From Planctomycetota bacterium (GTDB lineage Bacteria > Planctomycetota > UBA11346): a stretch of 64,000 nucleotides of DNA. Location of the stretch: contig JBBQSO010000007.1 of assembly GCA_038213805.1 (NCBI GenBank), forward strand, positions 32,001 to 96,000. The letters run 5' to 3'. The notes beneath the pieces are model-generated. The model saw nothing but the letters and a program-made list of their open reading frames with translations. It was not told the DNA's origin and did no database searches. Numbering within the stretch: the stretch's first letter is position 1; each line of letters opens with the position of its first letter. Positions 27,565-59,023 of the stretch are shown piece by piece. The position numbers were made by a program, and so were the translations under genes.

Positions 27565-27801
27565 TCAACACGCCACCATCGGCGGTCGGAAACATGGGAT
27601 CCGCGTGGTACGCGAAACCTCGACCAAGGCGGCGCTGCGTGCGGCGAGGAACTCCTCGAGGGACTCCTGCCGCCGCCATTCCGGGCGGTGGGCGGCCAGC
27701 GCCTGGGCCTTGGCGTCATCGCTGGCCAGCTCGCGTTGACCGCAGCCAGCGAGCACGAGGGCGAGCGCGAGCGTTGGACCCACCAGCGAGCCGCTCACCA
27801 T
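27565..27801 (-). CDS. Small putative lipoprotein (possibly truncated)
   Basis: MVSGSLVGPTLALALVLAGC lipobox followed by a charged helical segment. Confidence 0.45.
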   Translation of the reverse strand: MVSGSLVGPTLALALVLAGCGQRELASDDAKAQALAAHRPEWRRQESLEEFLAARSAALVEVSRTTRIPCFRPPMVAC

Positions 27802-27984
27802 CGCAGATCCAGGTCGAGCCAGGGAATTCGTGCAGCGTCGCCGGCCCCGATTCCGCTCTGGCCACCACCGTCCACTCGCCCTCCCCTCCACGGGGCATGG
27901 TCGCCACGCAGCGCGTTCGGCAGGCGCAGCTGCAGGACGGCAAGATCCGCTCACCTGCGCGGGAAACCCGCGCGACCTCCCCCA

Positions 27985-28983
27985 TCACTTGCCGCGCAGC
28001 TTGTGCAGCTTTGCGCGGAACGCCGCCACATCCGGCGCGCGGATCGTCTGGGTGGGGACGTAGATGTGCTTGTCCGCGGGAATGAAGGATGCATCGCCGG
28101 CGAGCTGGCGAGCCAGCAATTTCAACGACTGGTAGCCGAACTCGTACGGTTGCTGCACGATGGTGCCCACCACGGTGCCGGATTCGATGCCGACCAGGGT
28201 CGCGTCTTCTTCATCGAACCCCACAACCTTGACCTTGCCGAGCTTGCCCGCGTCCGCGAGCGCGCTGAGGATGGCGGGAACGTTGTAGCCCGAAAGCCCG
28301 ACCATGCCGGCGAGCGCCGCATGGCTGACCAGGCTGTCGGCGGCGTTGGCCTTGGAGCGCGCGCGGTCGCCATCGTCGGCACGCAGGTCGAGGATGGTGA
28401 CATTGCTGCCGGCCAACCCCTCTTTCAGGCCCTGGAAGCGCTCGATGGAGTTCTGCTGGTCCTTCTTGCTGATAAAGACCATGATCTCGCCCCCGGCAGG
28501 CAGGGCCTCCTTGACCAGCACAGCGGCAGCGCGCCCGGCGGCGACGTTGTCGGTGCCCAGGTAGTACGCGCGTTTCGAGGCGGGCGCGTCGCTGTCCTGA
28601 CAGATCAGCAGCGCCTGCTGCGCCGCGTGGTCGAGCATCGCGCCCTGGTTGCCGGCGTCGACCGGGCTGATGGCGATCCCGACCGCGCCCTTCACCAGCA
28701 GATCTTCGACAATCTCCTTCTGCTTGGCGGCCGTGCCGTCGCCGATGCGGAACTCGAGGACGTAGCCCGGCAGTTCCCGTTGTGCCGCTTCGGCACCTGC
28801 GCGCGCGATGTTCCAGAAATCGGCAGGAAGGTTCGTGACGAAACCGAGCGTGCGTACCTGCGCAGCGCCAGCGGCCGGACCGGTCGGCACGGTGGAGTGC
28901 GGATCCTCGCCGCAGCTGACGAGCAGCAGGAGCGCGAGCGAGGTCAGTCCGAGAGCGGAAGCTGGGTGGGAGGCGATACGCAT
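27985..28983 (-). CDS. Sugar ABC-transporter substrate-binding lipoprotein (RbsB-like)
   Basis: Lipobox LVSC; DFWNIARAGAE, GIAISPVD, DSDAP, YLGTDN, VVGFDE and IVQQPYEFGY. Confidence 0.9.
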   Translation of the reverse strand: MRIASHPASALGLTSLALLLLVSCGEDPHSTVPTGPAAGAAQVRTLGFVTNLPADFWNIARAGAEAAQRELPGYVLEFRIGDGTAAKQKEIVEDLLVKGAVGIAISPVDAGNQGAMLDHAAQQALLICQDSDAPASKRAYYLGTDNVAAGRAAAVLVKEALPAGGEIMVFISKKDQQNSIERFQGLKEGLAGSNVTILDLRADDGDRARSKANAADSLVSHAALAGMVGLSGYNVPAILSALADAGKLGKVKVVGFDEEDATLVGIESGTVVGTIVQQPYEFGYQSLKLLARQLAGDASFIPADKHIYVPTQTIRAPDVAAFRAKLHKLRGK

Positions 28984-29078: not shown

Positions 29079-29951
29079 TCAGCAAGCCGCCCGCGCGACA
29101 TCCCGGAAGATCCCTTCCAGGGCTTGGCGCATGACCATCGCGTCGGGCTGGATCCCGGTCCAATAGTGGACGCCGATGACGCCCTGGCCGACCAGCATGG
29201 CGAGTCCATCGATGACGCGGCAGCCGCGCTGCCGCGCCGCCCGAACCAAGTGCGTGGCGGGTGGATTGGGTATCACGTCCGCGACCACCATGTGCGGTCG
29301 CAGCGTCGCCACATCAAGCGCGAGTCGCGCATCCCCGTGCGGATGAAGGCCGATGCTGGTCGCGTTGATCACGATGTCGACGTCGTCGGGGACGGCGTAT
29401 TCCGTGGCCCAAGCCACGCCTTCGGCAGCGACGCGCAGGCTGGTGCGCAGCAGGTCGACAAGGTCGGCCCGTCGCTGTCCGCCCCGATTGACGATGACGA
29501 AGGAGGCCGCGCCGGCCAAGGCCAGTTCGACGGCGATCGCGCGCGCCGCGCCGCCGGCGCCGAGGATCACCACCCGTCTGCCGGCGGGGTTGGCGACCCC
29601 CTGCAGCGCCTGCACGAAGCCCTTGCCGTCCGTATTCTCGCCGATCAGGCGGTCACCGCGTCGCACCACGCAGTTCACCGCGCCCATGAGCGCCGCCGAC
29701 TCGCCGAGACCGTCGAGATACGGTATGATCGCCAGCTTGTGCGGCTGGGTGCAGTTGAAGCCGCGAAAACCCATGGCCCGCGCTCCGCGCACCGCGGCCG
29801 CCAGATCCGTGGGCGCGACTTCGATGGTGAGGTAGCGCCATGGCAGCCCGAGGTGGCGGTAGGCCGCCTCCACCATCGGTTGGGAGGGGTTTTCGGCGAC
29901 GGGCTGGCCGAACACGCCGGTCAGCTCCTGCTTGAAATCAAGGTCGGTCAT
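29079..29951 (-). CDS. aroE: Shikimate/quinate 5-dehydrogenase family protein
   Basis: GFNCTQPHK, GAVNCV, ENTDGKGF, LGAGGAARA, INATSIG and DGLAMLVGQG. Confidence 0.9.
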   Translation of the reverse strand: MTDLDFKQELTGVFGQPVAENPSQPMVEAAYRHLGLPWRYLTIEVAPTDLAAAVRGARAMGFRGFNCTQPHKLAIIPYLDGLGESAALMGAVNCVVRRGDRLIGENTDGKGFVQALQGVANPAGRRVVILGAGGAARAIAVELALAGAASFVIVNRGGQRRADLVDLLRTSLRVAAEGVAWATEYAVPDDVDIVINATSIGLHPHGDARLALDVATLRPHMVVADVIPNPPATHLVRAARQRGCRVIDGLAMLVGQGVIGVHYWTGIQPDAMVMRQALEGIFRDVARAAC

Positions 29952-30005
29952 GGCCTGTGCTCCAACGGGGTGCGGCGGATGATCGGCGCGGCAGAGACGA
30001 CTGGA

Positions 30006-32813
30006 TCAGGGCCCATCGGTCGTGCCCAGCTTGTTGATCGTACCGTAGAAGTCCCGCTGGATGGACGTGCCATCCGCGCCGGTGAGTTCGTACTTGAGCT
30101 TGATCTGCATCACCGGCTGGATCTTCGGAATCGCCAGGAACACCGTCCTGCCGTCGGCCGAGAGCGTCGCGGCCGTGATGTCGATGGCATCGTGGCCGTT
30201 CTTTCGGGGATCGTCGACATGCACTTCGGGCGAGCCGTAGCTGCTGGTCCAGAGGTAGTTCCACTGCTCGCCGCCGTAGTTGTCCTTGTCGGTGGCGGAA
30301 GCGCGGTCGAGGGGACTGGAGAAGGTCAAGCTCAACCCGTTCTTCTTCACGACCATGCCTACCACCAAGTGCGAGGTCTTGCCGGTGTAACGTACGCGCT
30401 GGAATCCGCCGTCCTTGGCGCCAGTGGTCTGCCAGCCCTTGAGACCGGTGAGGTAAAGCTGACCGTCGCGGTCATTGAAGCGGGCGCGCATGACCCCCGT
30501 ATTGAACTCCAGGGGGACGCGCGTCACGCCGCCTTGGGGAACGCCGCCTTCCTTGCTCCACGCGACCACGAACAGCGAGCAGGTCCCGTACGACAGGTGC
30601 AGCAACTGGCCCTTGGGCATGCCCCACTTATCGCTCGGCACCCACGCCTGACCGCCGCAGGAGTTGTCGACGCCACCATGGGGCAGCCAGACGATCGGGC
30701 GGTCGTAGTCGGTCGGTGCCTCTTTGCGATGGGCCAGGTCGGGAACACCGTAGAAGCCGCCGCGCTGGACCAGGTTGATGCGCGATGTCGGAGTCCACGT
30801 GCCTTCATTGTCGCCGCAGGTGATCTGGCCATCCGGACTGACGCTCATGCCATTGGGCGCGCGGAATCCTGTAGCGACGATCTCCATTGACGAGCCGTCC
30901 TTGGCAATCTCGAACATGCAGCCGTGGTGCTCGCTGATGCGCTCCCAGCCACGCCCGCCGTCGCGCACCGGACCCGCCTTGGCGAAGTAGAAGTTCCCCT
31001 TGGGGTCGGTCCACAGGTCGAAGGCGAACTCATGGAAGGCCGGGGTGGTGTGGATGTCGTTGTTAAAGTTCTCATAGAAGTCCGCTTCGCCGTCCTTGTT
31101 GAGATCGTTGAGGCGCACCAGGCCCTCGCGGCAGAGCACATAGACCAGGTTGTCGACGATTTTCAGGCCGAGCGGCTGGTGAAGACCGGTCGCGAACCGC
31201 TTCCAGCTGAGCCTGGTGAGCTTGTCATCGACGCCCGAGACCACCCACACATCGCCATTCCAGGTGCAGACCGCAGCGCGGCCGTCGCTGAAGAAATCAT
31301 GGCCGGCAAGGCGCATCTTGGACTTGAACGGATTGTCATAGGGGACGGTGATGGTATCGACGACGTACGCACCCTGGCCCTTGCCGAGCTCGCCCACTGT
31401 TTCCACGGACTGAGGATAGCGCGCCGCGCCCCCTTTGATTAGGGTGGCGGGGTCGATGACGTCGAGGGCGGCCTTGACCAGGGCGGCGCACTCGGCCGCA
31501 GCTGCCTTGGCGATCACCACTTTGAAGTTCGCGGCCTTGAGCGCCGGGATCTTGAGCACGATGCGGTTTTCGACCACCGCCAGGGTCACACCGGCGGGGG
31601 CGCCGACCAGGCCCGCGCTGACGTGGTCGCCGCCGGCGCTGAGCGTGGCGAGACCGTCGCCCACGGTGCCCGTCGCCCCCGTGAGCTCCGCGACCAGCAT
31701 GGTCGACGCCGAGAAGCCGCTTACCGATAAGGTGCGCGACACGGCCTGGCCGTTGGCCTCGAAACTTGGCAGCTCGAGAACCTTGCCAGTGCCGACCGTG
31801 TACGAGAAGACGACCTTGTCGCCGTTGATGTAGTGGCCGATATAGTGGGCCCAGTTTCGAGGCAACGGACCGAACGGTTCACTGCGTGGATCTGCGAAGC
31901 TGTCGCCCTTGGCCCAGCCGGGCACCGCGGCCGTTCCGAAAATCTGGGTGCCCACGGTCTTGGGACCGGTCGAGCTGTCCCCGAGGTACGCGATACCCCT
32001 GAGTTCCAGGTACCCACCTGTCCAGCCCGCGCTCATGCGCATCAGGTCGGAATCGAAGCACATTCCACCGATGACCGGTGCGCCAGCCGCCCCGGTCCCC
32101 TTGGCCGACAGCTTCACCGCGTGGCCCTTGATGGCCACGTTGTCCTTCGGCGCCGGCGAGAGGATGGTGTCGTCGATCAGCGGGCCGTAGTCCATCAGGT
32201 TGACCCAGGCGTTGGGGTCAGCCCTGGGCCTGTCCCAAGCGGCCTTGTCCCAGGCGATCTTCTGCTCGGCGCCCTGCGTGTGGACCAGGGCGCTGCCAGG
32301 AATCAGCGCCTCGGCGCCACCGGGGACGATCCAGGAGACCTTGCAGCCGGCTCCGGCGGTGCCCTGGAAATACTCGATGCGGATGGTGTGGTCACCCGCG
32401 CTCAATATGGCCTTGCCGGATTCCTTCTTCATTCCGTGGATGCCGCTGTTGTCGACCACGCGCTGGTCGTCGATGAACAGCCGCGAACCATCGTCGGATT
32501 CGGTCGTGAAGGTGTAATCGCCGGGCTTATCGATGCGGACCCGGCCGGTCCAGCGCGCGATGAAGTTGTTCCTGAGCTTGGTACCGTAGAAGTCGCCCCC
32601 GGTGCTGTCGAAGGCGACCTCCTGGTCGATGCGCACCAGTGCGGGCTGGCGCGGGGCGCTGAGCGCGGTGAAATCACCGACGTCGCTGTCGAAGGCGAAG
32701 TACTCGCCGATCAGACCGGGTGCATCCTCCGCAGCGCAGGTGCTGGCGAGGCTGGCGACCAGTGCGACAAGGATCGTCCACCGGGCGGGCGTGGGAAGGA
32801 AGGCGGAGACCAT
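30006..32813 (-). CDS. Secreted PA14 + DUF6797-type beta-propeller (sorbosone-dehydrogenase-like) protein
   Basis: Signal peptide; PA14 motifs ARWTG, ESDDGSRL and IEYFQG; RFATGLHQPLGL, DGEADFYENFN, ATGFRAPNG, DNEGTWTP and LYLTGLKGWQT. Confidence 0.78.
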   Translation of the reverse strand: MVSAFLPTPARWTILVALVASLASTCAAEDAPGLIGEYFAFDSDVGDFTALSAPRQPALVRIDQEVAFDSTGGDFYGTKLRNNFIARWTGRVRIDKPGDYTFTTESDDGSRLFIDDQRVVDNSGIHGMKKESGKAILSAGDHTIRIEYFQGTAGAGCKVSWIVPGGAEALIPGSALVHTQGAEQKIAWDKAAWDRPRADPNAWVNLMDYGPLIDDTILSPAPKDNVAIKGHAVKLSAKGTGAAGAPVIGGMCFDSDLMRMSAGWTGGYLELRGIAYLGDSSTGPKTVGTQIFGTAAVPGWAKGDSFADPRSEPFGPLPRNWAHYIGHYINGDKVVFSYTVGTGKVLELPSFEANGQAVSRTLSVSGFSASTMLVAELTGATGTVGDGLATLSAGGDHVSAGLVGAPAGVTLAVVENRIVLKIPALKAANFKVVIAKAAAAECAALVKAALDVIDPATLIKGGAARYPQSVETVGELGKGQGAYVVDTITVPYDNPFKSKMRLAGHDFFSDGRAAVCTWNGDVWVVSGVDDKLTRLSWKRFATGLHQPLGLKIVDNLVYVLCREGLVRLNDLNKDGEADFYENFNNDIHTTPAFHEFAFDLWTDPKGNFYFAKAGPVRDGGRGWERISEHHGCMFEIAKDGSSMEIVATGFRAPNGMSVSPDGQITCGDNEGTWTPTSRINLVQRGGFYGVPDLAHRKEAPTDYDRPIVWLPHGGVDNSCGGQAWVPSDKWGMPKGQLLHLSYGTCSLFVVAWSKEGGVPQGGVTRVPLEFNTGVMRARFNDRDGQLYLTGLKGWQTTGAKDGGFQRVRYTGKTSHLVVGMVVKKNGLSLTFSSPLDRASATDKDNYGGEQWNYLWTSSYGSPEVHVDDPRKNGHDAIDITAATLSADGRTVFLAIPKIQPVMQIKLKYELTGADGTSIQRDFYGTINKLGTTDGP

Positions 32814-32878: not shown

Positions 32879-33943
32879 TCACCAGTTGGTGGGCTCGGTA
32901 CGCAGGCGCTGGATCCACAGGATGGTGCCGCCCATGTTGCGAGCATGGTTCTGGGTGCGGTACTCGCAGACGTCCTCGGTGTGCGAGGCGTTGAGGGGCC
33001 AGATCACATAGTGGTCGAATTCGCGGCCGCGCGAGTGCAGCAGATAATGGTAGTCCATGGCCATGCAGGCGCCGTTCCATTCGACGCGATAGAACAGGCG
33101 GCACTCGCTGGAGTTCAGGCTGGTAAACAAGTTGGGGTCGTCGCCGAAGGCCGAGGTCTGGCCGGCGGCCTGGACCTCGCTCCAGCTGCGGAAGCCCAGG
33201 GTGCCGCCGCCGCCGCAGGTCACCACGAAGGTCGCGCCGCCATCGCGGAACAGGCGGAACCACGACATGCCGGTGGAGTTGCCGCGCGGCCGCGCGTCCC
33301 CGGCCAGGTAGGCGGCCCAGTTGTTGTGCAACGTGCCATCGGCCTCGGTGATGGTCAGCGCCGCGCCCACGTTGGCGCCCAGGTCGCTGGCGAGCCAGCC
33401 GTTGCGCACCACCGGCTGAGGGTCCGGATTGCACAGGTAGGGCATGCCGAAACGCGCGTCGCCTTCGCCGACCGGCTGTGGCGAGACGGTGGTGCGGATC
33501 GGGTTGTAGGCGGCGGTCAGCTGCACGGCGCAGGGCGCACGCTGCCGCACGTACATCGGGAAGCGACGGGAGCTGCCGAGCGGGAAGCGCGAGTCGTCGT
33601 CGACGTTGTCGCCGTAGTACTTGGGTCCGAGCTTGCCATCGCGCACGTCGATCCAGCCGAAGGTCTCGAGGTGATCGACCGGAGCGCCGCCGACGGCGGC
33701 GGGTTCCCAGCCGATGCGCGAGGCCTCCTGCAGATAGTTGCAGGCGGCGAGCAACATGATGCGCGCCTGCGATTCGCGCATGACGCTGGCCATCTCCTCG
33801 GCATCGCTGCGCATGCGCGCGAGGAAGGCAGCGGCAAGGGAGACCAGCAGCGCCGAGATGCCGGCGACCAGGATCAGAATGGTGGCCTGGCGCAACGGGC
33901 GGCGGGACGTGGACGTGGACGTGGACGTGGACGTGGCGGGCAT
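32879..33943 (-). CDS. PilX/GspK-like minor pilin-type protein
   Basis: RRPLRQA/TILILVAGISALLVSLAAAF: basic leader and hydrophobic helix without Glu5, followed by SQARIMLLAA; last gene of a pilin-like trio. Confidence 0.6.
   Translation of the reverse strand: MPATSTSTSTSTSRRPLRQATILILVAGISALLVSLAAAFLARMRSDAEEMASVMRESQARIMLLAACNYLQEASRIGWEPAAVGGAPVDHLETFGWIDVRDGKLGPKYYGDNVDDDSRFPLGSSRRFPMYVRQRAPCAVQLTAAYNPIRTTVSPQPVGEGDARFGMPYLCNPDPQPVVRNGWLASDLGANVGAALTITEADGTLHNNWAAYLAGDARPRGNSTGMSWFRLFRDGGATFVVTCGGGGTLGFRSWSEVQAAGQTSAFGDDPNLFTSLNSSECRLFYRVEWNGACMAMDYHYLLHSRGREFDHYVIWPLNASHTEDVCEYRTQNHARNMGGTILWIQRLRTEPTNW
33905..33934. repeat. GGACGT x5 hexamer repeat encoding (Thr-Ser)5 in the leader of the PilX-like gene
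   Basis: Counted directly in the sequence. Confidence 0.9.
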
Positions 33944-33950
33944 GGCGGTT

Positions 33951-35225
33951 TCAGTAGGAATCGAGGTTTGCCGGAGGCGCGGAGAAGGCGCCCTTGGTGG
34001 TGTTGTTGTCCCACGCCGCCCAGCCGGTGCCGGGTGCGCGCTGCTGGCGCGCGCCGCGCAGCGAGGTGCCGAAGCCGGCGAAGGACAGCTCGATGGCCTC
34101 GCCGGTCAGCGGGCTGACCCAGCGCACCTTGCACAGCGCGACATGGCGGGTGTTCTTGATGAAGCGCGCGACCGCCACGCTGACCTCCGGCCAGCCGGCC
34201 GGCTTGGCGGCCAGCAGGCGATAGGGGATGGTGGTCATGCGGTTGAAATTCTGCATCGCGTTGGCGTCGTTCTGGTACCCGACACTGTACTTGCGGCGAT
34301 TGTCGGTGAGCGGCGCGCCGTTCACAGACCAGTCGGGGTTGGCGATGGCGTAGGCGGTCATGTAGGTGTTACGGTACTTCCCGCGCGCGGTAGTCTGGCC
34401 ACCGTCGTCATTGTTGAACATGTAGGGGTTGCCCGTGGGTCGGTTGCACCACGAGGGGATGCCGCCGGCATTGGTCTGCACCCAATCCGACATGCCGCCG
34501 GTGTTCGCCGGCTTGTACAGTTCGTAGATCGCGTTGGCGGGCATGTATTCGCACAATCCGTAGAAGCCAAGGGCGTTGACCAGTCCCTCGACCTGGTTGC
34601 CGTACCAGCTGCGGGGCACCGTGCCGTCGCCGCTGAGGGGCCCGAAACCCACTGCTACCGAGGTAGCCATCCCCTCACTGGTCGGGGGACCCGCCTTCAT
34701 CAGCTGCGCGAAATCGCCGATGCCGGGAATGCGCTTGGTGTTGGTGAACATCGCGTAGCGGCCGAAACGCAGATCGAGCGCGTTGCCGTCGGACTTCTCG
34801 GCCATGTTGCCGGCGTACCAGCTGCGCGGGTTGTCGACCGACCAGCTGATGTCGCGCGGGTCCCAGCCGGTGGCGGACTCGTCGTCGGCCAGGGTGCCGC
34901 CGCCGCCACTGCGCGGATAGACCGCCGGGAAGGGGGTGAACGGCAGGCCCTGCGGGCCGCCTGCGGTGCCGGTCCCGCCGCTTGCGCGCAGCGCCTGGCG
35001 GGTGATGTCGTTGGGGTCGTCCAGGCTGGTCCAGAAATCGAGCTCTTCGTGGGCGGCGAGGACGGCGGCGCGCAGCATGCCGTTCTCAAGCGACATGCGG
35101 TTGGCCAGGGTCACCGACTGTGAGGCGACGCGGAACCCGGCGGCGGCGGTGTAGATCAACACCAGGCCCAGGCCGATGGCGATCATCATCTCGATCAGGG
35201 TGAAGGCGGAGCGGTGCGTGGACAT
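33951..35225 (-). CDS. Prepilin-type N-terminal cleavage/methylation protein (PilW/GspJ-like, about 424 aa)
   Basis: MSTHRSA/FTLIEMMIAIGLGLVLIYTAAAGF class III signal with Glu5. Confidence 0.85.
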   Translation of the reverse strand: MSTHRSAFTLIEMMIAIGLGLVLIYTAAAGFRVASQSVTLANRMSLENGMLRAAVLAAHEELDFWTSLDDPNDITRQALRASGGTGTAGGPQGLPFTPFPAVYPRSGGGGTLADDESATGWDPRDISWSVDNPRSWYAGNMAEKSDGNALDLRFGRYAMFTNTKRIPGIGDFAQLMKAGPPTSEGMATSVAVGFGPLSGDGTVPRSWYGNQVEGLVNALGFYGLCEYMPANAIYELYKPANTGGMSDWVQTNAGGIPSWCNRPTGNPYMFNNDDGGQTTARGKYRNTYMTAYAIANPDWSVNGAPLTDNRRKYSVGYQNDANAMQNFNRMTTIPYRLLAAKPAGWPEVSVAVARFIKNTRHVALCKVRWVSPLTGEAIELSFAGFGTSLRGARQQRAPGTGWAAWDNNTTKGAFSAPPANLDSY

Positions 35226-35235: not shown

Positions 35236-37128
35236 TCAGCGCACGATGCAGGGCAGGCGCGGATCGTAGTAGTTGAAGCGCCCGACCGAGGTGGCGCGCA
35301 TGCGCACCGAGCGCGGCACGGTGCCGCGATCGAAGCGCTTGTTGAAGTTGCGATCGGCGCCAAACGTCCCACTGAACACCTTGCGCGCCTGCAGGCTCGA
35401 GCCCTTGTCGCGGTAGCCGTTGCTGTTGAACGTGTTGTTCAGCAGCATCTTCCCCGAGACGTCGGCCCCGACCGTGTCCTGGGCGGAGGCCTCGGCGAAG
35501 AGCAGCACCTTCTCGGGGTTGCGGTAGGCATAGAGCTGCTCATCGCGGAAGTCGACCTTGTCCATGCGCGCGTTCGCGTCCTCGGTGCCGACCGGCGAGC
35601 GGAAAGGGTACTTGCTGGCGTCGACCGGCGCGCTGGGCGCGGATTCGAAGTCCTCGTAGGACTGCCAATCCACCGCCCAGAACACTAGCTGCCGGCAGCG
35701 CTCGTCGGCGTCAAAGCGGCGCGTGAGCGTGAAGTGGTCGAGTTCGCCCCAGAATGGCGATCCGCTGGCGACGCCCACGGGCGGCGATGAGTCGGGAAAC
35801 TGATAGCTGCAGCCGGGGTTCTTGACCAGTTGCGCGGCGATCGGCTTCCACTGCGCCGCGTCGACCGAACCCATGCCCTGGCCGCCGGCGAAGATCTTGC
35901 CGCTGGCCGGTGGGGTGAAGAGGTCCCACTCCAGCAGCGGGTAGTCCATCATGATGCTGCGCTGCAGCGGACGGGGGCAGGCCCAGTCGTAGGGACAGCT
36001 GGCGGCGTAGGTCATGATCGTGCGCAGACAGCGCTCGTGGTAGTACGCGATCAGGTCCTGGGTCAGGGTCAGGCCCGGAAAGCCTCCGCTGGCGGGGATG
36101 GGCAGGCCGCCCGTGCCCGAGGCGCCGAGCTCGGCGCTGGTCTTCCAGCGCGTCACGCAGGTGGCCGCGTGCGAGACGAAGCGCAGCGACTGGACCTGCT
36201 TCCACAGCACCGAGGTGTCGGCCAGCGGCCCCGGCGTATAATGGAGGAACACCGTGCTTGGCGTGGCGAATTCCGCAGTCAGCGTCGAGGTCGGCTTGAA
36301 CAGCGCATCGAAATCGGAAGAGCCCAGCTTCTGCACCGCATAGACCAGCGCGGCCTGCAGGTAGAGGATCGCGTGGGCCTCGTCCGTCGCACCCGGCGCC
36401 TGGGTGTAGGCGAGGTAGGCGTCGAACACCGGCTTGACCTGGGGATCGCCGCCCGGCAGCGAAGCTTCCGGACAGATGATGGGGAATGAGGGCGCTTCGT
36501 TGAAGGTGGCCATCACCGCCCCGCCCTTCGACCACTCATCCTTGTGCGGCCCGTGCAGCGGCGGCGACGGATACGGGTTCTCGTAGGGCCAGTTCTTCTG
36601 CGCCAGGATGTGCACGGCGTTGGCCTGGGCGTAGCCGGTGACGGCGAAGACCAGCTTCTGCGCCTCATTGGGTGGGGCGGTGGCCAGAGCCTGCTCTTCC
36701 AGATTCGACGTCGCCATCGGCTGCGAGTAGTAGAGGTAGCCGCCCTCCGCGAGGATCTTCTGCATCTCATCGCCGTCGCTGTCGAGTCGGCGCGCGATGT
36801 CGAGAGGCAGCGGCAGCACGCCGAAGCGGTGCGAAGCGACGCGCGATTCGAGGTCCCACTCCTGGCTGCGGTAGCTGACCGGGACGTCCCAGGCGTTGGG
36901 CGCCTCGGTGTCGATCGCCGGGTTCGCGTTGTGGGTGGCGTTAAAGCACTCCACGAGCTCCTCGGCCTTGGCCCCGGCGTAGAGCTGGAAGCGCGCCAGC
37001 TGCTGCGACCTGATGCCCATGGGAAAGAGCATGATCACGCTGACCACGCCGAAGGCGAGCAGGCCGAGCGACAGCGCCACTTCGAACAGCGTGAAGCCGC
37101 AGGCCAGGGGGGAGCGAGTAGCGATCAT
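35236..37128 (-). CDS. Large prepilin-type protein (PilV/GspI-like N-terminus, 630 aa)
   Basis: MIATRSPLACG/FTLFEVALSLGLLAFGVVSVIMLFP class III signal with Glu5. Confidence 0.85.
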   Translation of the reverse strand: MIATRSPLACGFTLFEVALSLGLLAFGVVSVIMLFPMGIRSQQLARFQLYAGAKAEELVECFNATHNANPAIDTEAPNAWDVPVSYRSQEWDLESRVASHRFGVLPLPLDIARRLDSDGDEMQKILAEGGYLYYSQPMATSNLEEQALATAPPNEAQKLVFAVTGYAQANAVHILAQKNWPYENPYPSPPLHGPHKDEWSKGGAVMATFNEAPSFPIICPEASLPGGDPQVKPVFDAYLAYTQAPGATDEAHAILYLQAALVYAVQKLGSSDFDALFKPTSTLTAEFATPSTVFLHYTPGPLADTSVLWKQVQSLRFVSHAATCVTRWKTSAELGASGTGGLPIPASGGFPGLTLTQDLIAYYHERCLRTIMTYAASCPYDWACPRPLQRSIMMDYPLLEWDLFTPPASGKIFAGGQGMGSVDAAQWKPIAAQLVKNPGCSYQFPDSSPPVGVASGSPFWGELDHFTLTRRFDADERCRQLVFWAVDWQSYEDFESAPSAPVDASKYPFRSPVGTEDANARMDKVDFRDEQLYAYRNPEKVLLFAEASAQDTVGADVSGKMLLNNTFNSNGYRDKGSSLQARKVFSGTFGADRNFNKRFDRGTVPRSVRMRATSVGRFNYYDPRLPCIVR

Positions 37129-37237: not shown

Positions 37238-37255
37238 TGCTATCTCGGTGCAGCA
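37238..37255. promoter_or_regulatory. Degenerate copy of the 18-bp operator (TGCTATCTCGGTGCAGCA) upstream of the pilin-like cassette
   Basis: Differs from the 52167 copy at only 2 of 18 positions; AT-rich context about 110 bp upstream of ATG 37128. Confidence 0.55.
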
Positions 37256-40544: not shown

Positions 40545-40562
40545 TGCTACACCGGTATAGTT
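40545..40562. promoter_or_regulatory. 18-bp palindromic operator TGCTACACCGGTATAGTT
   Basis: Lies between the divergent starts 40309 (-) and 40703 (+); matches the other copies. Confidence 0.75.
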
Positions 40563-52327: not shown

Positions 52328-54355
52328 ATGAGTCGATGCCCGAGAGCAAGATCCAGAGTCGAGTACGATGGCGCATGGAGCATTCCACCGTGGCCGCCGC
52401 GCTTGTGGAGGTCGACGCAGCTCATCTGGATCCTGCTCCTCGTCACGCTCGCCACTCAATCGTCGGCGGTCGAGGTCACCACCCTCGCGGACAGCGGCCC
52501 CGGCAGCCTGCGCAACGCCTGCACGGCGAAAAGCGTCATCCTGGGACCTGCGCTGGCGGGCAAGACCATCGTGCTCGCTTCGCGCATCGCCCTGACCGGC
52601 GACGTGGTCATAGACGCCACCGCGGCGCCGGGCGTGATCATCAGCGGCGGCGGCACGAGCCGGATGTTCTTCATCCCGATGAAGGCGAAGGTGGTCTTCG
52701 CGGGGCTGACCTTCACCGCCGGTTCCGCCGTCGATCCCGACAAGCACAAGGGCATCAACAGCAGCGGCGGCGCGATCTACGGCGACATGTTCTGCGACCT
52801 GACCCTGGTGCGCTGCGTCTTCCGCGCAAACCTGGCGAAGGTGCCCGAGGGCGGCGGCGCCGCGGTGTTCATGAGCTACCACAGCAAGCTGTCCGTCCTG
52901 GACTGCGTTTTCGAAGACAACGACGCGACCGGCTGCGGCGGCGAGCGCGGCGGCACCGTCACCCTGGCCACCGATACCACCTCGATCTTCCGCTCCACGC
53001 AGTTCCGCGGCAACAAGGGCTTCACAGGAGGCATCAACAACCTGCTCGGGACGATGACGGTCGAGGACTGCGTGTTCGAAGACAACGACGGCCACGATGT
53101 CGGCGGGGCGATCTACTCCGACGGCGCCAGCGAGAAGATCGATGACGACAAGGGCGGCGTGTTGACCATCGCGCGCACGCGTTTCGTCAACAACCGCTCT
53201 CCGGGCCTGGGCGGCGCCTGCTATCTGTTCATGTACCGCCTTGACCGCCTGCTGGTCGACCACTGCCTCTTCGACGGTAACAGCGGCGGTCACGGTGGTG
53301 GTTTCGCGAGCGGCAACGGCATCATCGAGATTGCGGACAGCGTCTTCCTGCACAACACCGCCACCTATGGCGGCGCCTTCTGGACCTCGGCCTCGACCGT
53401 CGTCGGATCCGCACCGCTGACGGTGCGCAACTGCCTGTTCGTGGAGAATGACGCGAAGAACGGCCTCGGCGGTGGCGTCTCGACCGAGACCACCGATCTG
53501 GTCCGCCTCGAGCGCTGTACCTTCTGGAAGAACACCGGGCGCGGCGGCGCCGTGCAGTTGTGGAAGCCGGGCACGTCATCGATCCTGGGCTGCATCTTCG
53601 CCGAGAACGCCTCCCCCGTCTGGACCGGCACCGCACCCGTCGCGACAGGGGCCAATGTGGTGTGGCCTGCCGATGACGCGATTCCGCAGAGCGACGCCGT
53701 GGTCCGCGCCGATCCGTTGCTGGAGGCGCTCGCGCCCGCCGACGACCGCTTGCCCGCAGCCGTCCCGCGCTCGCCCGGCATGGCCGGCAAGGTCGGTGCG
53801 ACGGGCGTCACGCTCAGCGGCGGCGGGAAGAAGGGCCACAAGAGGGTGGCTGCGACAAAAGTCAGACCCGGCGGGCCGCCGAAGCTTGCAGCGTCCGCGA
53901 AGGCGCCAGATCCCATCCAACTGGAATCCGCCGCGCTGGCCAAGGCCATCGCCGCCGCACCAGACGCGCCAGCACGCGCAGCGGCCGCCACGACGCTGCG
54001 TGGCAATCTGGTCGGGGCTGGCCGCGGCGCGAGCGGACCACTCACCGATTTCGGGCAGATCACCATCCACGGCGGTGACGAGGTCAGCCTGCGCTTCACC
54101 ACGCCGGCCGGCAGCGAGCAGGCGCTGCCCTGGAAACTCGTCGACGACACCGCGCTGCTCGCCCTCGCCAGGCCCAGCCTGGGCGCGGCGCCCCCCGCGA
54201 TCCGCGTCGCCTGGATCGCGCTGGCGTGTCACGTCGGCCGTCCGCTGCCCGAGATCCGCACCGAGCTGGAGCGCCTGAAAGCGGTGGATGCGGACGCGTT
54301 CAAGCGTCTCGATGCGCTCGTCGCGGGCGCCAAGGCTGCGGTGCCGGCGCCATAG
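52328..54355 (+). CDS. Secreted beta-helix protein with Pmp-like GGA(I/F/V) repeats, Lys/Pro linker and helical C-terminal domain; start uncertain (52328 or TTG 52403)
   Basis: VTTLADSGPGSLRNA N-terminal motif; repeated FxxN..GGA(I/V/F/C). Confidence 0.75.
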   Translation: MSRCPRARSRVEYDGAWSIPPWPPRLWRSTQLIWILLLVTLATQSSAVEVTTLADSGPGSLRNACTAKSVILGPALAGKTIVLASRIALTGDVVIDATAAPGVIISGGGTSRMFFIPMKAKVVFAGLTFTAGSAVDPDKHKGINSSGGAIYGDMFCDLTLVRCVFRANLAKVPEGGGAAVFMSYHSKLSVLDCVFEDNDATGCGGERGGTVTLATDTTSIFRSTQFRGNKGFTGGINNLLGTMTVEDCVFEDNDGHDVGGAIYSDGASEKIDDDKGGVLTIARTRFVNNRSPGLGGACYLFMYRLDRLLVDHCLFDGNSGGHGGGFASGNGIIEIADSVFLHNTATYGGAFWTSASTVVGSAPLTVRNCLFVENDAKNGLGGGVSTETTDLVRLERCTFWKNTGRGGAVQLWKPGTSSILGCIFAENASPVWTGTAPVATGANVVWPADDAIPQSDAVVRADPLLEALAPADDRLPAAVPRSPGMAGKVGATGVTLSGGGKKGHKRVAATKVRPGGPPKLAASAKAPDPIQLESAALAKAIAAAPDAPARAAAATTLRGNLVGAGRGASGPLTDFGQITIHGGDEVSLRFTTPAGSEQALPWKLVDDTALLALARPSLGAAPPAIRVAWIALACHVGRPLPEIRTELERLKAVDADAFKRLDALVAGAKAAVPAP

Positions 54356-54468: not shown

Positions 54469-54735
54469 TCACGTCGCCGCCTGCCGCTTCGCGGGCAGGA
54501 ACGCGGACAGTTCGCCCACGGGCCCACGCGTGCGCCTCGTGGCTCCCTTGACGTTCGGAGCGCGACGGCGCTGTGACTCGGGAAGCTCGCCGTGCTGTTC
54601 GAGAAATTCGCGTGCGGCCGCTGCAGAGACCAGCTCGCGGTGGATCAGATCGACGGTGACGAATGGCGACCGTCTGGGCACGGGTACGGACTCCTGGTGG
54701 GTCGGGGCGCAGGCGGGCCTGAGCATCAGGGCCAA
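54469..54735 (-). CDS. Possible small hypothetical protein
   Basis: Overlaps the stop of the PAS gene on the same strand; no family recognised. Confidence 0.3.
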   Translation of the reverse strand: MALMLRPACAPTHQESVPVPRRSPFVTVDLIHRELVSAAAAREFLEQHGELPESQRRRAPNVKGATRRTRGPVGELSAFLPAKRQAAT

Positions 54736-55259
54736 CGGGACACGACGCCGGGAGGCGCGGGGCTGGACAGTCCGGTGGCGATGATACAGGTCCCCTCCAC
54801 ATGCCCCCGGCCGCTGCGGATCGGACTGAAATGGTAGGTGACCGGCCTGGGCGGATAGGGGATCCGGAACGCCGCCGGCATGTGCCGGTCATCCACCTGC
54901 ACTGCCCGGCCATCCGTCATCACGGTCAGGAACGCGTCCTTCAACAGGTGCCACGTGTCGGCGTAGATGGTGCGCGCGCGCTGTCCCTGCAGGGCCGCCG
55001 ACTGCGGTCCCAGCAGCGGTTGATAGGCGTCGTTATGCAGAACGGTGAGTTCGCGCTGCCAGCAGATGGCCATCGGGACGTGGCTCTCCAGGCACACCTC
55101 CAGTACCGCATGCAGGCGCGGGGACCACGTCGCCGGGACGCCCATGGCGGTCATCGACCAATCCAGGTGCTCCAGGCGATGGCCGGCCTGTCCACCATGG
55201 GCGAACCACGGCTGGAAGATTGCGGCGGCCAGCTTGGGGAGGTCGGTGGCACGGTGCAT
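54726..55259 (-). CDS. Stand-alone PAS-like domain protein (N-terminal module of soluble histidine kinases)
   Basis: DWSMTAMG..W..L...L..CLES..PMAICW..EL..LHNDAY..LLG...YHFSPIR matches the DWSxTPLG PAS module; no kinase domain follows. Confidence 0.7.
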   Translation of the reverse strand: MHRATDLPKLAAAIFQPWFAHGGQAGHRLEHLDWSMTAMGVPATWSPRLHAVLEVCLESHVPMAICWQRELTVLHNDAYQPLLGPQSAALQGQRARTIYADTWHLLKDAFLTVMTDGRAVQVDDRHMPAAFRIPYPPRPVTYHFSPIRSGRGHVEGTCIIATGLSSPAPPGVVSRWP

Positions 55260-55309: not shown

Positions 55310-55327
55310 TGCTATACCGGTGTAGCA
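55310..55327. promoter_or_regulatory. 18-bp palindromic operator TGCTATACCGGTGTAGCA
   Basis: 51 bp upstream of ATG 55259; near-perfect palindrome. Confidence 0.75.
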
Positions 55328-55435: not shown

Positions 55436-56515
55436 CTAGGAACCTGCGCGCGGCGCCGCCGTGCTGGCGCGCACCACCAGGCGCGCCGCGACCAGGCTGA
55501 CCGCCGGCGCCGGCCTGCCTGCCAGCAGGTCGATGACGACGTGCACCGCAGTCGAGCCGATCTCGGCGAGAGCGTGACTGACGGTGGTCAGGGGCGGAGA
55601 GGCGGCGGCACCGAGCAGGTCGTCGAAGCCGATCACCGACAGATCGCGCGGCACGCGCCGGCCGCGATCGCGGGACAGCTCGAGCAGAGCGATCGCGACC
55701 ATGTCGTTGTGGCAGCAGACGGCGGTGACGTCATCAGGCCACGTCACCTTGGCGAGCGCTGCGCGCAGGTCGGCCAGGCCCTCATCGACGTGGCCATCGC
55801 GGTAGACCGGCTCCTGGATCGCCACTTCGCGCCCCACCAGCCGGTGCGCGCGCATCGCGGCGCGGAACGCCGCCCGGCGCTCCGGCAGACTCGTGGTCCT
55901 GCCGCGTGCGTAGCCGATCCACAGCACCGAGCGGTGACCCAGTTCCGCGAGGTGCGCGACCGCGGCGGCGATACCGGGAGCGGGATCAAGCCGGACGTCA
56001 TGAGGCGAGCCGACATCGTGGCCGCCGATGGTCACCACCGGCCGGCGGCTGGCGAAGAGTGCGGCGGGCAGGGTGGGGAAGAGTTGCCGCGGCGCCACCA
56101 GCGCGTCGATGCGACCGGTCTCGAGCAGCTGCAGCGCATGGGCGACCGCATCATCGCACGAGCTGCCACCGGCCAGCAGCACGTCATAGCCATGCTGGCG
56201 CGCCGCCTGCCCGATACCGCCCAGGATCGCCCCCCAGAAATCGACGCCCAGGATGCCCTGACCACCGAATCCCGTGGTCAGACCGATGGTGAAGGAGCGC
56301 CCGGTCGCGAGCGTGCTGGCGTGATAGTTGCCGCGGTAACCGAGCGACTGCGCGGCGGCGCGCACGCGCGCCCCGCATGCGTCGCTAATGCGCAGTTCAG
56401 CCGCCCGCCCACGCAGGACGGCAGCGGCAGTGGATTTGCTGACCCTGGCGAGTGCCGCGACCTGAAGCAGGGTCGGCGCCCGGGAGCGCGGCGGCAGGGC
56501 GGTCACCGCCGCCAT
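55436..56515 (-). CDS. LacI-family transcriptional regulator
   Basis: PTLLQVAALARVSKSTAAAVL HTH, LGYRGNYHASTL hinge, CCHNDMVA, VPRDLSVIGFDD, PPLTTV and LVVRAST. Confidence 0.92.
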   Translation of the reverse strand: MAAVTALPPRSRAPTLLQVAALARVSKSTAAAVLRGRAAELRISDACGARVRAAAQSLGYRGNYHASTLATGRSFTIGLTTGFGGQGILGVDFWGAILGGIGQAARQHGYDVLLAGGSSCDDAVAHALQLLETGRIDALVAPRQLFPTLPAALFASRRPVVTIGGHDVGSPHDVRLDPAPGIAAAVAHLAELGHRSVLWIGYARGRTTSLPERRAAFRAAMRAHRLVGREVAIQEPVYRDGHVDEGLADLRAALAKVTWPDDVTAVCCHNDMVAIALLELSRDRGRRVPRDLSVIGFDDLLGAAASPPLTTVSHALAEIGSTAVHVVIDLLAGRPAPAVSLVAARLVVRASTAAPRAGS

Positions 56516-56716
56516 CCGCGGCTGCGCACGCAGGGTGACCGCCGGACTGGCCCAAGGTGGACGGATGCGACGTGGGATGCGGCCAGGGGAGACTCCAGAG
56601 GCGGTGGACCGGTCAGCCCGCGAGGGTCGCGGACCTGGATCACGAATCTGCAACCGGCCCGCTGCCGTGCAAGGTCACGGCTGGGGCGGCCGGCCGCCCG
56701 GCCAGCAGCGGGGCCC

Positions 56717-59023
56717 TCATTGGAGCTCCATCTGCACGACGTCCTTCCGCCGGCTCTCGGGGCTGACCACGACCGTGGTCACGCGGCCGCCGCGCACCGT
56801 GGCGGCGATCACCGTGTCGTGCGCGGCGTGCAGGCGGAAGTCGACATCCCACGCCTTCGGCCACGCCGGGAAGAGCAGGATCTTGTCGCCGCGCGCCTGC
56901 ATCAGCATGGACTGCAGGATGAGCTGCCCGGCGCCGCCGTTGTCCAGGTCGGGCTCCCAATCATGCGCCGGCTTCCAGAACCAGCGGAAGCGCTCGCTGC
57001 CGTAATTCATGAAGTTGGCGGCCACCTCCGTCTGCGCGCGCGCCGCCCAGCCCAGGCAGGCGGCCTGGATGCCCTGCTGACCCCAGCAGGTGCTGTCAAC
57101 GAAGCGCTTGGCTTCGTAGGTGGCGCGGGCGAGCTCCAGTTCCGGCAGACCGACACCGAAGAGCCGGTAGGGATGGACGGCGTACAGTTCCGGATTCTCG
57201 CTGTTCTTCGGCGCATCGAACGACGCGGCCGGCCACAGGATGGCGGTGCCGGTTGGCGATGCCTGGTCGGACGTCACCGGCACCTTGCCAGCGGCGTCGG
57301 TGCGGCCCCGCGGCAGCGGCGGCAGGTCGGCGAGCGTGGTGCGCCAGCGCGCGCGCTGCGTCGGCGTGGTCAACCCCTCGGGCATCGCAAGCAGGCGGGT
57401 CAGCACCTGCATCAGGCCGGCGATGTCGGGCAGCGGATCAGCCGCATGCTGGCGCGTCTCGAGCGCCTCCGACGGTGCGAAGCGCAGCTTGCCGGCGACG
57501 CGCGGCCAGTGCTGGTCGAACCACAGCGTGAAGGCGTCGGCGAGCGGTAGAAGCGTGCCTGTGGCCAGCTCCGCATCATGATGCAGGTCCCAGGTGTCGA
57601 GCAACATCATCATCAGCTCAGGCCCGTTATTGAAGTGGCGACCAATGTACGGATTGGTCATCTCCGGGCCGGGATTTCCCCAGCCAAAGTCGTTGTTGGA
57701 CGGCAGACCGAAGAAGAAGATGGTCTCGGGGAAGATCGCGCCGTCGTGCTTCCAGTACAGGCGCGTGCGTGCGGTCGCCAGCGGCAGCGCGGCTTTGTAC
57801 ATTGCGAAGAACGGTGCCAGACTGTCGAGGTCGCCGTCGGCGATCATCGGCCAATAGACCAGGCGATTGTTCTGGAACCACACGTTGCTGCCCCAGGCAC
57901 GGAAATCGGGGTCCATGCGGCCCTTCTCCGGGACGTAGGGCGTTCCGGGAGCCGGCTCCTGGCCGACCGTGAAGATGCCTCCATTGAACTTCATCGGCGC
58001 CGGTCCGCGACCCTCGCACGCTGTCATCCAGCGCTGCATGATGTACCCCTGGGTGACCTCCGCCGCGTGCGCGGCGCCGCCGACCAGGATCCAGCTGCGT
58101 TCCCAGAAGCGGTTCCACCACACCTGCGTCGCGGCGCGCGCGTCTGCGGCATCGCGCGCCGCGGCCTGTGCCGCGGCCGCCTGCACGCCGCTGCGCCAGT
58201 CGTCGACGCTCTCCGCCACGTTCGCGAACGCGGTGATGTCCAGACGTAGCCCTGCCTGCGGCGTCGCAGTGGCCAGCGTGTGGGCGTCCACGACCGCCAG
58301 CCCCGGCCCGCGCGCCAGCGCGCCGACGTTGCGGTTGATCAGCGGATCGGGGTGCGCGCTCTGCAGCGCCTCGAGGTGCTGGTTGCGCAGCAGGTCGCCG
58401 TAGATGCTGCGCGCGTTGTGGTGCAGCCAGATCAGGCTGTCCGGCGCCGCCAGCACGGTGTCGGGATCGATGGTCGGCCCGCCCGCGGGCGAGCCCTGCA
58501 GTTCGCGCAACCCCTGCCCGAGTTCGGCGTTTCCGGCGGCATCGACCAGCGGGCGCGGTGCAGTGCGCCACAATTCGAGACCGACCCGGGCCGCGCGAGG
58601 TTGCGTGTCCACCAGCTGCACGTGGATGACCGGCGCATCGACGTCGACCCACGCCTGCAGCACGGCCTGCCCGTCGCCATGGATCTCGATCACGCCGTCG
58701 CGGGTGCGCAGCACCTGCCGAAATGACGCGCCCGCGCGGAAGGGGCTCGGAGTGAAGGTCACGCGCACCCGTCCGAGCTTCAGCAGCTGGCCGTTCTCGC
58801 TCCACGCATCGGTCTTGCTGATCAGCAGCACGACGTCGCCGTTCGCCTCGGTCCACAGGTTCATGCCCAGGTCACCGTTGCCGATCGGCATCGAGTCACG
58901 GTAGTCGGTGCCGGGGGCGTCCCAAGTCAGGGTGTACGGGTCTTCCGCGGCGCCGAGAGGCACCAGCAGGGCGCAGAGTGCGGTGAGCGCGGTGAGCAGG
59001 ACGGGCATGAGGAGGTGACGCAT
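56717..59023 (-). CDS. DUF5703-domain / GH95-like glycoside hydrolase, copy 2
   Basis: Colinear paralog of 40703..43012 with the same motifs and the identical C-terminus RRKDVVQMELQ. Confidence 0.8.
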   Translation of the reverse strand: MRHLLMPVLLTALTALCALLVPLGAAEDPYTLTWDAPGTDYRDSMPIGNGDLGMNLWTEANGDVVLLISKTDAWSENGQLLKLGRVRVTFTPSPFRAGASFRQVLRTRDGVIEIHGDGQAVLQAWVDVDAPVIHVQLVDTQPRAARVGLELWRTAPRPLVDAAGNAELGQGLRELQGSPAGGPTIDPDTVLAAPDSLIWLHHNARSIYGDLLRNQHLEALQSAHPDPLINRNVGALARGPGLAVVDAHTLATATPQAGLRLDITAFANVAESVDDWRSGVQAAAAQAAARDAADARAATQVWWNRFWERSWILVGGAAHAAEVTQGYIMQRWMTACEGRGPAPMKFNGGIFTVGQEPAPGTPYVPEKGRMDPDFRAWGSNVWFQNNRLVYWPMIADGDLDSLAPFFAMYKAALPLATARTRLYWKHDGAIFPETIFFFGLPSNNDFGWGNPGPEMTNPYIGRHFNNGPELMMMLLDTWDLHHDAELATGTLLPLADAFTLWFDQHWPRVAGKLRFAPSEALETRQHAADPLPDIAGLMQVLTRLLAMPEGLTTPTQRARWRTTLADLPPLPRGRTDAAGKVPVTSDQASPTGTAILWPAASFDAPKNSENPELYAVHPYRLFGVGLPELELARATYEAKRFVDSTCWGQQGIQAACLGWAARAQTEVAANFMNYGSERFRWFWKPAHDWEPDLDNGGAGQLILQSMLMQARGDKILLFPAWPKAWDVDFRLHAAHDTVIAATVRGGRVTTVVVSPESRRKDVVQMELQ

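Follow-up and report, generated by a model that had tools for sequence, protein, structure and literature searches.

The minor pilins PilV, PilW and PilX of type IV pili and the pseudopilins GspI, GspJ and GspK of type II secretion systems (T2SSs) follow one pattern, in which a class III signal peptide is present and Glu5 is found in the first two proteins and not in the third. The Verru_Chthon cassette of Verrucomicrobia occurs in multiple copies and has a PEP-CTERM neighbour. In Myxococcus xanthus, several alternative priming complexes of minor pilins and PilY1 serve one pilus machine and are proposed to have different targets (PMC12288465). Clusters of carbohydrate-active enzymes (CAZymes) are described as common and functionally uncharacterised in Planctomycetota, and the mechanism of planctomycete polysaccharide uptake is called unknown (PMC11131199). 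Here we examine a 64,000-nucleotide stretch of a Planctomycetota genome, referred to as the window (positions 32001-96000 of contig C7 of source genome G000; coordinates below are window positions unless a contig is named), in which a cassette of three prepilin-like genes (the trio, genes A, B and C) lies among glycan-degradation genes under an operator assigned to a LacI-family repressor. An initial annotation had proposed that positions 27565-59023 encode an undescribed pilus-linked glycan capture system. We consider it very probable that two things of different age lie together here, a LacI-controlled regulon and one recruited trio paralogue. The whole statement, in which the recruited paralogue also serves as a pilus tip for adhesion to the substrate, we regard as evenly poised between right and wrong.

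The source genome (5.5 Mb, 5,497,005 positions scanned) is 90% complete. Genes were called with our own dicodon model and annotated with Pfam and NCBIfam, and 33 window proteins were scanned. The repressor, its operators and the glycoside hydrolase (GH) and other genes that accompany them are:

55436..56515, minus strand: LacI-family repressor, likely a palindrome binder (Pfam LacI and Peripla_BP_3)
37238..37255: weak operator in the trio leader; on the minus strand, TTGACA lies 18 bp upstream of it (19.4 bits, 7th of 5.5 million positions)
40545..40562: operator between the divergent beta-helix and GH139 genes
45742..45759: operator in the leader of the tagged beta-helix gene 43283-45682, same position in G010
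52095-52112 and 52167-52184: two operators between the divergent clan GH-A-like and PMP-like genes, present in G010, G002 and G001
55310..55327: operator before the PAS-domain gene, same position in G010
64569, outside the window: seventh operator, upstream of the LRR/DUF1552/DUF1592 genes
49809..52064, minus strand: putative clan GH-A (GH5/GH42-like) hydrolase (Atlas lead), 69-95% orthologues adjoining LacI in three relatives
45862..49518, minus strand: secreted GH2-family glycoside hydrolase (Pfam GH2 domains), 76-89% orthologues in G010 and G002
43283..45682, minus strand: beta-helix and Ig-like protein with a Cys-Gly C-terminal tag (Pfam), orthologues in G010 and G002
37340..40309, minus strand: beta-helix and PA14 protein with a Cys-Gly C-terminal tag (Pfam)
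52403..54355, plus strand: PMP-like right-handed beta-helix protein, untagged (Pfam), 88% orthologue in G010
54726..55259, minus strand: small PAS-fold protein under an operator (weak PAS_4 match), kept in G010
40703..43012, plus strand: GH139 copy 1 (DUF5703), phmmer E 1e-206 to 9HMB and 3e-110 to 9HYQ
56717..59023, minus strand: GH139 copy 2 (DUF5703), 87-88% identical to copy 1, catalytic residues kept
59078..64000 (on C7 to 96586), minus strand: leucine-rich repeat (LRR), DUF1552 and DUF1592 genes, in the same orientation as GH139 copy 2

With up to three mismatches, the 18-bp palindrome has six copies in the genome, all on C7. A matrix built from 15 sites (six from this genome and nine from relatives, the trio site left out) scores at least 16.4 bits at 7 of 5,497,005 positions; all seven are intergenic and all belong to this locus, six in the window and one at 64569. 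The shared operator reported in the initial annotation is thus real. Its pattern is found in 4 of 48 genomes of the family (control, 1 of 48), and the same four genomes carry a LacI orthologue (53-79% identity) on contigs shared with the operator. In G010, G002 and G001 operators flank LacI and the clan GH-A-like gene, which is the most conserved gene of the regulon, while in G010 and G002 they also flank GH2, the 43283 beta-helix gene and DUF1592. The LRR/DUF1552/DUF1592 block has the same order and operator in G010, and an operator adjoins DUF1592 in G002. The regulon therefore reaches beyond 59023, the limit first drawn, to DUF1552/DUF1592 and the operator at 64569. Planctomycete DUF1592/DUF1552 pairs may be taken as a lead toward a role in glycan use.

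A palindromic operator in the leaders that co-occurs with its repressor, the mark of a LacI carbohydrate regulon, is found here. The mark of a Bacteroidota-type polysaccharide utilization locus (PUL), a TonB-dependent receptor with SusD in the locus, is not: as first noted, none of the 33 window proteins is a TonB receptor, SusD, major facilitator superfamily (MFS) transporter or ATP-binding cassette (ABC) permease. A SusD search of the 90% complete genome found none (the control was positive in B. thetaiotaomicron). The genome has two TonB receptors; neither is among the seven operator sites, which answers the question, raised beforehand, of a receptor with the same operator elsewhere. On the sequence evidence, the LacI-controlled, Sus-less glycan regulon is real and of a known kind. 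LacI, the clan GH-A-like hydrolase, GH2, a tagged beta-helix protein and DUF1592/1552 would make up its core, to which GH139 and a sugar-binding protein are attached.

The GH2 gene was found where the initial annotation had placed it, as were a PA14-propeller protein, a sugar-binding lipoprotein and the three-gene pilin-like set. Its surface-tagged beta-helix proteins are present as well, two with a tag (37340-40309 and 43283-45682) and a third without (52403-54355). A possible likeness of the 43283-45682 gene to GH141 finds no support from Pfam or the PDB. For the 37340 gene, the sole orthologue found, in G002, stands alone in another context, without operator or trio. The clan GH-A-like gene had been called GH5. 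For GH5 there is a lead only: Atlas clusters near the gene contain GH42 in 10-18% and GH5 in 11-16% of their members, and it has no Pfam hit (including Cellulase, PF00150) and no PDB hit.

Two hydrolases had been read as GH95-like. We rejected this identity for the DUF5703 pair, since Pfam gives DUF5703_N only and the PDB search gives only 9HMB (SDT91673.1) and 9HYQ (BT0984), both GH139 2-O-methyl-alpha-L-fucosidases (PMC12282258); homology and catalytic residues place both copies in GH139. They are homologous to the enzymes of that study over their full length, and both keep the catalytic acid, unlike 9HMB. The gene lies in an inverted 2.3-kb duplication (40703-43019 and 56710-59023, 87-88% identical, 13.7 kb apart), and the two proteins are 87.5% identical. 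When copy 2 is aligned with BT0984, the base N412, the acid E561 and Q411, N639, E641, W683, D723 and W403 are kept, W490 is replaced by Tyr and W162 is lost; copy 1 has the same motifs. The Trp triad W162/W403/W490 is a feature of activity on chain B of rhamnogalacturonan II (RG-II) (PMC12282258). As only W403 is kept, the triad is incomplete, and both copies are probably active enzymes with a substrate other than RG-II chain B.

The trio itself is encoded by three consecutive genes:

35236..37128, minus strand: gene A, oversized prepilin-like protein in the PilV/GspI position, 630 aa, G|FTLFE (TIGR02523 PilV, 21 bits, residues 10-66)
33951..35225, minus strand: gene B, prepilin in the PilW/GspJ position, 424 aa, A|FTLIE (PF07963 and TIGR02532 above cut-off)
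32879..33943, minus strand: gene C, in the PilX/GspK position, 354 aa, hydrophobic helix without Glu5 (N-terminal motif counts)

All three reading frames are intact. Across the family, A and B carry G/A|FTLxE and C a hydrophobic helix without Glu5, so that the class III signal peptide, the Glu5 pattern and the I-J-K order are all found in the trio. The likeness to the PilV, GspJ/PilW and GspK/PilX models is confined to the N-terminal helix. Protein A, whose family members are 568-847 aa long, scores 21 bits on the PilV model (139 positions) against a cut-off of 52.2, and C scores 10.6 bits on GspK against a cut-off of 130; in the B family TIGR02532 is matched by 43 of 67 members and GspJ by 3 of 67, at E 3e-4. 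The A and B profiles align with each other over the signal helix alone. PDB searches gave no match with profiles A4 and A6, and only N-terminal pilin helices with A5 (E 0.03-0.11).

An AlphaFold2 model of gene A from 69 sequences (predicted local distance difference test, pLDDT, 85; predicted template modelling score, pTM, 0.80) has a long N-terminal helix, residues 14-64, and strands from distant segments; an earlier model from 11 sequences was poor (pLDDT 46.7) and was not used. Fold searches, in which mainly residues 208-387 were tested, gave no clear match and no pilin match, with none from Foldseek at E of at most 0.001. A missing fold match is no sign of a new fold. In the complex model, A(36-630) and C(40-354) scored 0.91, compared with 0.00 for the best control, with 464-539 contacts; runs agreed in at least 82% of contacts, partner pLDDT was at least 79, and contact was predicted between the N-terminal helices. 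Among solved pairs 116 of 157 attain the mark used for complex scores, and among mismatched pairs 2 of 215 do; with our own alignments these counts are only approximately valid. Of the complex modelling suggested at the outset, the A-C pair is supported by this model; the trio may assemble as a heterotrimer, with B presumably joining the modelled pair. Conserved and variable blocks alternate along the trio proteins, which we count in favour of the main reading. The genome encodes 9 PilB/PilT/GspE-type ATPases, 6 secretins and one prepilin peptidase, all away from the trio. A genome search for PilY1 was blank, as was its control, and is uninformative; no large secreted neighbour recurs at trio loci. 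Separately, C101:2286-15412 holds three tandem secretin-domain genes near pilin and ExbB/ExbD-like genes.

Genome G000 contains 11 A, 11 B and 11 C genes, with ten sets complete. The A and B genes at the end of C24 abut the B tail and C gene at the end of C58 (B residues 8-372 and 371-402), which gives 11 cassettes and not twelve. In G022, trio matches lie on at least 20 contigs. Relatives of gene A were found at 70 loci, all in metagenome-assembled genomes (MAGs) of Planctomycetota, 14 different ones. Matches to the C profile were confined to one family: apart from the source genome, 7 of the 15 genomes tested from the window's family have one, compared with 0 of the 285 others in the phylum sample. 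Against 1.84 billion representatives the profile matches 346 clusters at E of at most 0.001 and 313 at 1e-10. The order A-B-C is found in 55 of the 70 loci, 10 being cut by contig ends and 5 not called by the gene caller, and in the 55 complete loci the cassette consists of three core tip genes only. At four loci in four MAGs, an inverted trio lies between genes for an S26 peptidase and an acyltransferase, whereas in G000 these two genes are separated by 25 bp; such filled and empty sites indicate that trio cassettes are gained or lost as units. The open-access literature searched, with subscription papers and supplements outside it, contained no description of the cassette or its wider family, which is apparently an undescribed, lineage-specific library of oversized pilin tips.

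Many trios share a promoter. The bipartite motif TGTCCGGW-N15/16-BRTC precedes 24 of 66 relatives' A genes in strict form and 41 of 66 by matrix, compared with 4 of 300 random genes, and from its shape we infer the extracytoplasmic function (ECF) type. In G000, the 3870 upstream regions contain 12 strict matches, 2 of them on the opposite strand; 7 of the 12 stand ahead of pilin clusters: four trios and three non-trio minor-pilin clusters outside the training set (C23:37882, C38:15712, C55:21347, C24:61756, C26:37376, C81:19719 and C86:15721). In G004 and G007, too, the motif stands ahead of a multi-pilin cluster, and its genome-wide counts are 2-5 times those of a reversed-pattern control. 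Six of the 11 G000 trios score at least 13. This shared ECF-type promoter may mark a candidate pilin sigma regulon. No sigma-54 motif was returned for 43 upstream regions of trios, and the pilin promoter was not found before the adjacent ECF sigma genes of C72 and C1, where it would have indicated autoregulation. The regions C38:6969-15579 and C55:21501-30142 are each a cluster of four pilin genes in which the PilX position is taken by a giant protein (1750-1850 aa), an arrangement that we take to resemble the Verru_Chthon layout.

The window copy departs from this arrangement. In its gene A clade (Shimodaira-Hasegawa-like approximate likelihood-ratio support, SH-aLRT, 97, from a quick tree), 5 of 7 members adjoin genes for an ECF sigma factor and a FecR-PA14 anti-sigma factor, and the five clade-mates with upstream DNA score 15-24 for the pilin promoter; the clade was thus already tied to a carbohydrate-domain sensor. 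The leader of the window trio scores 3.0. As the ECF-type promoter is missing and a LacI operator is present, the window trio appears rewired into the sugar regulon. Most cassette copies would be driven by the ECF-type promoter that is common to other minor-pilin clusters, and the window copy by a sigma70-type -35 element with the LacI operator. (At L034, L047 and L053, a trio with sigma and anti-sigma genes lies beside a homologue of C23:37900-38394; in G000, C23:32677-38394 has a five-pilin cluster.) That the trio stands under the same LacI operator as the CAZymes, as first claimed, is borne out by the 19.4-bit site at 37238. Its association with the regulon is not seen elsewhere: the operator precedes 1 of 73 trio upstream regions, the window copy only, and in three relatives with the same regulon, the 7 contigs that carry the operator, all of them short, yielded no trio. 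The locus is therefore not a conserved new system, and it appears to combine a regulon with a trio paralogue recruited in one genome.

Downstream of the trio, genes of the same orientation continue:

30006..32813, minus strand: PA14, DUF6797 and propeller protein (Pfam), 65 bp after trio gene C
29079..29951, minus strand: shikimate/quinate dehydrogenase of the AroE family (Pfam/NCBIfam), duplicate of a C8 operon gene, 82% identical
27985..28983, minus strand: RbsB-like (Peripla_BP_4) sugar-binding lipoprotein without its own permease (Pfam/NCBIfam), 81% to the C8 copy

The junctions between pilin C and PA14, PA14 and aroE, and aroE and the binding protein are bridged by contigs of two sequencing runs taken together, both from one study, and one run may be the source sample. 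The 37128-37340 junction is absent from the pieces listed, and read depth is continuous there. The initial annotation had described a continuous minus-strand run from 40309 to 27565. The genes are co-oriented, but they do not form a single unit, since a separate TTGACA and an operator lie within the 211-bp gap 37129-37339 and the run includes aroE. The open reading frame ending at 27565 is weakly coding and has no Pfam hit. A LamG and cadherin-like protein (25525-27498), convergent with the end of the run, has no operator and no match among the hits listed in five relatives.

The C8 operon holds copies of aroE and the binding-protein gene followed by an ABC ATPase and a permease, the last two named by sequence pattern. 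The window genes are 81-82% duplicates of this operon, which accounts for the permease missing from the window; the operon would offer an ordinary import route for sugars. The PA14-propeller gene also belongs to a large paralogue family, with 64% and 61% paralogues on C51 and C2, and the 25-43 kb block as a whole is pieced together from duplicated genes (those for AroE, the binding protein, the PA14 propeller and GH139). G010 lacks this block: there, a GH31-LacI pair comes after the 43283 orthologue, and the block is missing between these syntenic genes. Moreover, the G010 homologue of the sugar-binding protein has an operator and a TTGAC -35 element directly upstream, at similar spacing. These observations, together with the gain or loss of trios at unrelated sites, are what one would expect if a mobile trio had landed behind a LacI-controlled promoter that formerly drove the sugar-binding protein and were a passenger with no functional link to the enzymes. 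We nevertheless regard a mere passenger as unlikely: all three frames are intact, other members of the clade are tied to a PA14-domain anti-sigma factor, and the leaders in the window and in G010, compared by eye, share these elements and are otherwise unlike.

Conservation of the trio-CAZyme neighbourhood had been named beforehand as a test, and it was largely not borne out. We took up to two genes on each side of the relatives' trios (193 genes in 152 clusters, one representative of each scanned, E at most 1e-8) and compared them with 116 random genes, drawn from G000 only; kin are not independent, and five loci were not gene-called. Glycoside hydrolases make up 2 of the 152 clusters and 0 of the 116 control genes (p=0.51), and regulators 13 of 152 and 4 of 116 (p=0.13). 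The neighbours include enolase, pyruvate kinase, PriA, NadA, FtsH, DnaJ and nitrite reductase. Conserved synteny of pilins with CAZymes was accordingly rejected.

This result bears on a reading in which the trio acts as a lectin tip equivalent to SusD: on retraction, the pilus would pull oligo- or polysaccharide through a secretin into the periplasm, where hydrolases with signal peptides act. The scarcity of TonB receptors, the missing SusD and the operator before the trio would fit it, as would 4 of the 10 other G000 trio loci, where a GH27, GH29, tagged esterase or chitobiase-domain gene lies no more than three genes from the trio. In other planctomycetes dextran has been seen on pili-like fibres and to accumulate in the periplasm (PMC5394234), and in Akkermansiaceae a type IV-like pilus locus has been tied to glycan use (PMC13174399). 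The trio, however, is missing from the relatives' operator-bearing contigs, its neighbours elsewhere are mostly housekeeping genes or regulators, and an ordinary ABC route is present. A SusD-like fold for gene A was also rejected, since SusD entries at Z 5.0-5.5 tie with unrelated TPR and helical proteins and cover a helical bundle only. We therefore think import by the pilus decidedly improbable. One of the two G000 TonB receptors lies directly upstream of a trio (C3:45110-52278), and at L057 a TonB receptor fragment lies two genes upstream of one. A broader proposal, which we put forward as fairly unlikely, is that a Planctomycetota family keeps 10-20 interchangeable oversized pilin tip trimers per genome, with the binding surface inside the pilins and each switched by a local or global regulator; that some, including the window copy, are a SusC/SusD-like step of glycan binding and import; and that they are the unknown proteins of the planctomycete polysaccharide-binding fibres.

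The tagged proteins suggest another role. The C-terminal tag consists of a Gly-rich linker, Cys-Gly-x-Gly, a hydrophobic helix and a basic tail. It occurs in the window at

5038-5217, 24431-24610, 37340-37564 and 43283-43462: C-terminal sorting tags (about 26 tagged genes among 4014 genome-wide)

and none of these four matches the curated NCBIfam tag models (MYXO-CTERM, GlyGly-CTERM and others), the best being GVDTG_CTERM at 13.7 of 29 bits. The trio could be an alternative GspI/J/K pseudopilus tip with which the T2SS exports the co-induced Cys-Gly-tagged beta-helix proteins. The genome encodes a complete T2SS, all 55 complete loci have just three core tip genes, and two of the 11 G000 trios (C7 and C24) directly follow one of these rare tagged genes; MYXO-CTERM proteins are reported to reach the surface via the T2SS (PMC12288465). 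In the 65 called loci of relatives, however, no tagged gene lies within two genes of a trio, the single pattern match being far from it, and the trio is not seen as a regular partner of CTERM proteins. The T2SS operons, furthermore, have their own minor pseudopilin genes and lack the pilin promoter common to the trios (gspE scores 8.3). Such a secretion adaptor seems to us quite unlikely.

We thus favour a LacI-controlled regulon joined by one dispersed, multi-copy cassette, recruited here, for an enlarged PilV/PilW/PilX (GspI/J/K)-type tip complex. An oligosaccharide would relieve LacI; secreted and surface-tagged enzymes would then cut the polysaccharide, which probably contains modified fucose, as GH139 suggests; and small products would enter via the binding protein and an ABC permease encoded elsewhere. 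Prepilin peptidase would process the trio, the trimer (A-C as modelled, presumably with B) would prime a type IV pilus built from genes elsewhere, and the resulting tip could attach the cell to its substrate polysaccharide. The link between pilus and enzymes looks like local recruitment and not like a conserved uptake machine.

Several points weigh against this reading. Of the seven operators, the one before the trio has the lowest score (19.4 bits, the others 27-33), and a consensus scan of 27400-46000 gave no full sigma70 promoter. Recruitment is seen in one genome only, since at the nearest trio orthologue (G010:C64, 75-83%) the contig breaks off 22 codons into A and the genes downstream differ. 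The motif counts of 24/66 and 41/66 are circular, because the motif was derived from the same upstream regions, and 5 of the 11 G000 trios score under 13. The A-C score may come partly from likeness to solved pilin-tip complexes, and the interface is barely more conserved than the rest (A, 0.58 versus 0.53, p=0.03; C, 0.54 versus 0.51, p=0.34). No known lectin or adhesin domain was found in any trio protein by Pfam, PDB or fold searches. Finally, carbohydrate-type domains occur in 11-13 of the 152 neighbour clusters, depending on LamG, versus 4 of 116 control genes (p=0.19 for 12).

Other features lie in the first part of the window. A GntR/sugar-binding regulator and a tagged GH39-PA14 protein form a pair at 1-5217, and the non-coding stretch 1021-2106 has a tandemly duplicated 60-nt unit as well as several repeats of 32-46 nt, both direct and inverted. 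A CusCBA-type heavy-metal efflux operon (OEP, HlyD/HMBD, ACR_tran) occupies 11692-18066. The pair of a LacI-like regulator and a tagged GH31 protein at 18619-24610 has no operator and is syntenic with the regulon in G010.

The locus offers a named, testable candidate, a tip cassette that shares its operator with GH139 and GH2 genes and has a predicted A-C complex. Since it is not itself a conserved new system, its weight is limited. The trio family, with 11 copies in this genome and a shared ECF-type promoter, would broaden the concept of alternative pilus tips, of which Myxococcus has three.

Compared with described systems, the trio is closest to PilV/PilW/PilX and GspI/GspJ/GspK, having three genes in V-W-X (I-J-K) order and weak N-terminal matches to PilV and GspK. 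Its subunits are far larger (A, 568-847 aa, versus a PilV model of 139 positions) and have no full-length family or fold match, and the cassette lacks fimU, pilE and pilY1 and is dispersed in 11 copies. As proposed here for the trios, M. xanthus has several alternative tip complexes; its three clusters each include PilY1, whereas the 11 trio clusters have no adjacent PilY1-like gene and carry the extra mass inside the pilins. With Verru_Chthon (TIGR02596/02598/02599/02600) the trio shares the form of a lineage-specific, multi-copy prepilin cassette in a bacterium of the Planctomycetes-Verrucomicrobia-Chlamydiae (PVC) group. It differs in having three genes and not four, in lacking a regular CTERM neighbour and in its poor score (14.3 bits for the A model on protein B against a cut-off of 51.4); TIGR02599 has no match in the genome, and the four-gene set is not found. 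The MUL2 locus of Akkermansiaceae (PMC13174399) and the dextran-binding fibres of planctomycetes (PMC5394234) are likewise pilus-type structures tied to glycan use in PVC bacteria. MUL2, as described there, has four genes in conserved synteny, among them PilM and a single pilin, whereas the trio is a tip-only, dispersed paralogue family; the relevant passages on the fibres do not name their proteins. Like the CAZyme clusters described for Planctomycetota (PMC11131199), the locus has co-localised CAZymes with a local regulator. Unlike Bacteroidota PULs, it has no SusC/SusD, and its operator stands before a pilin tip cassette and DUF1592/1552 as well.

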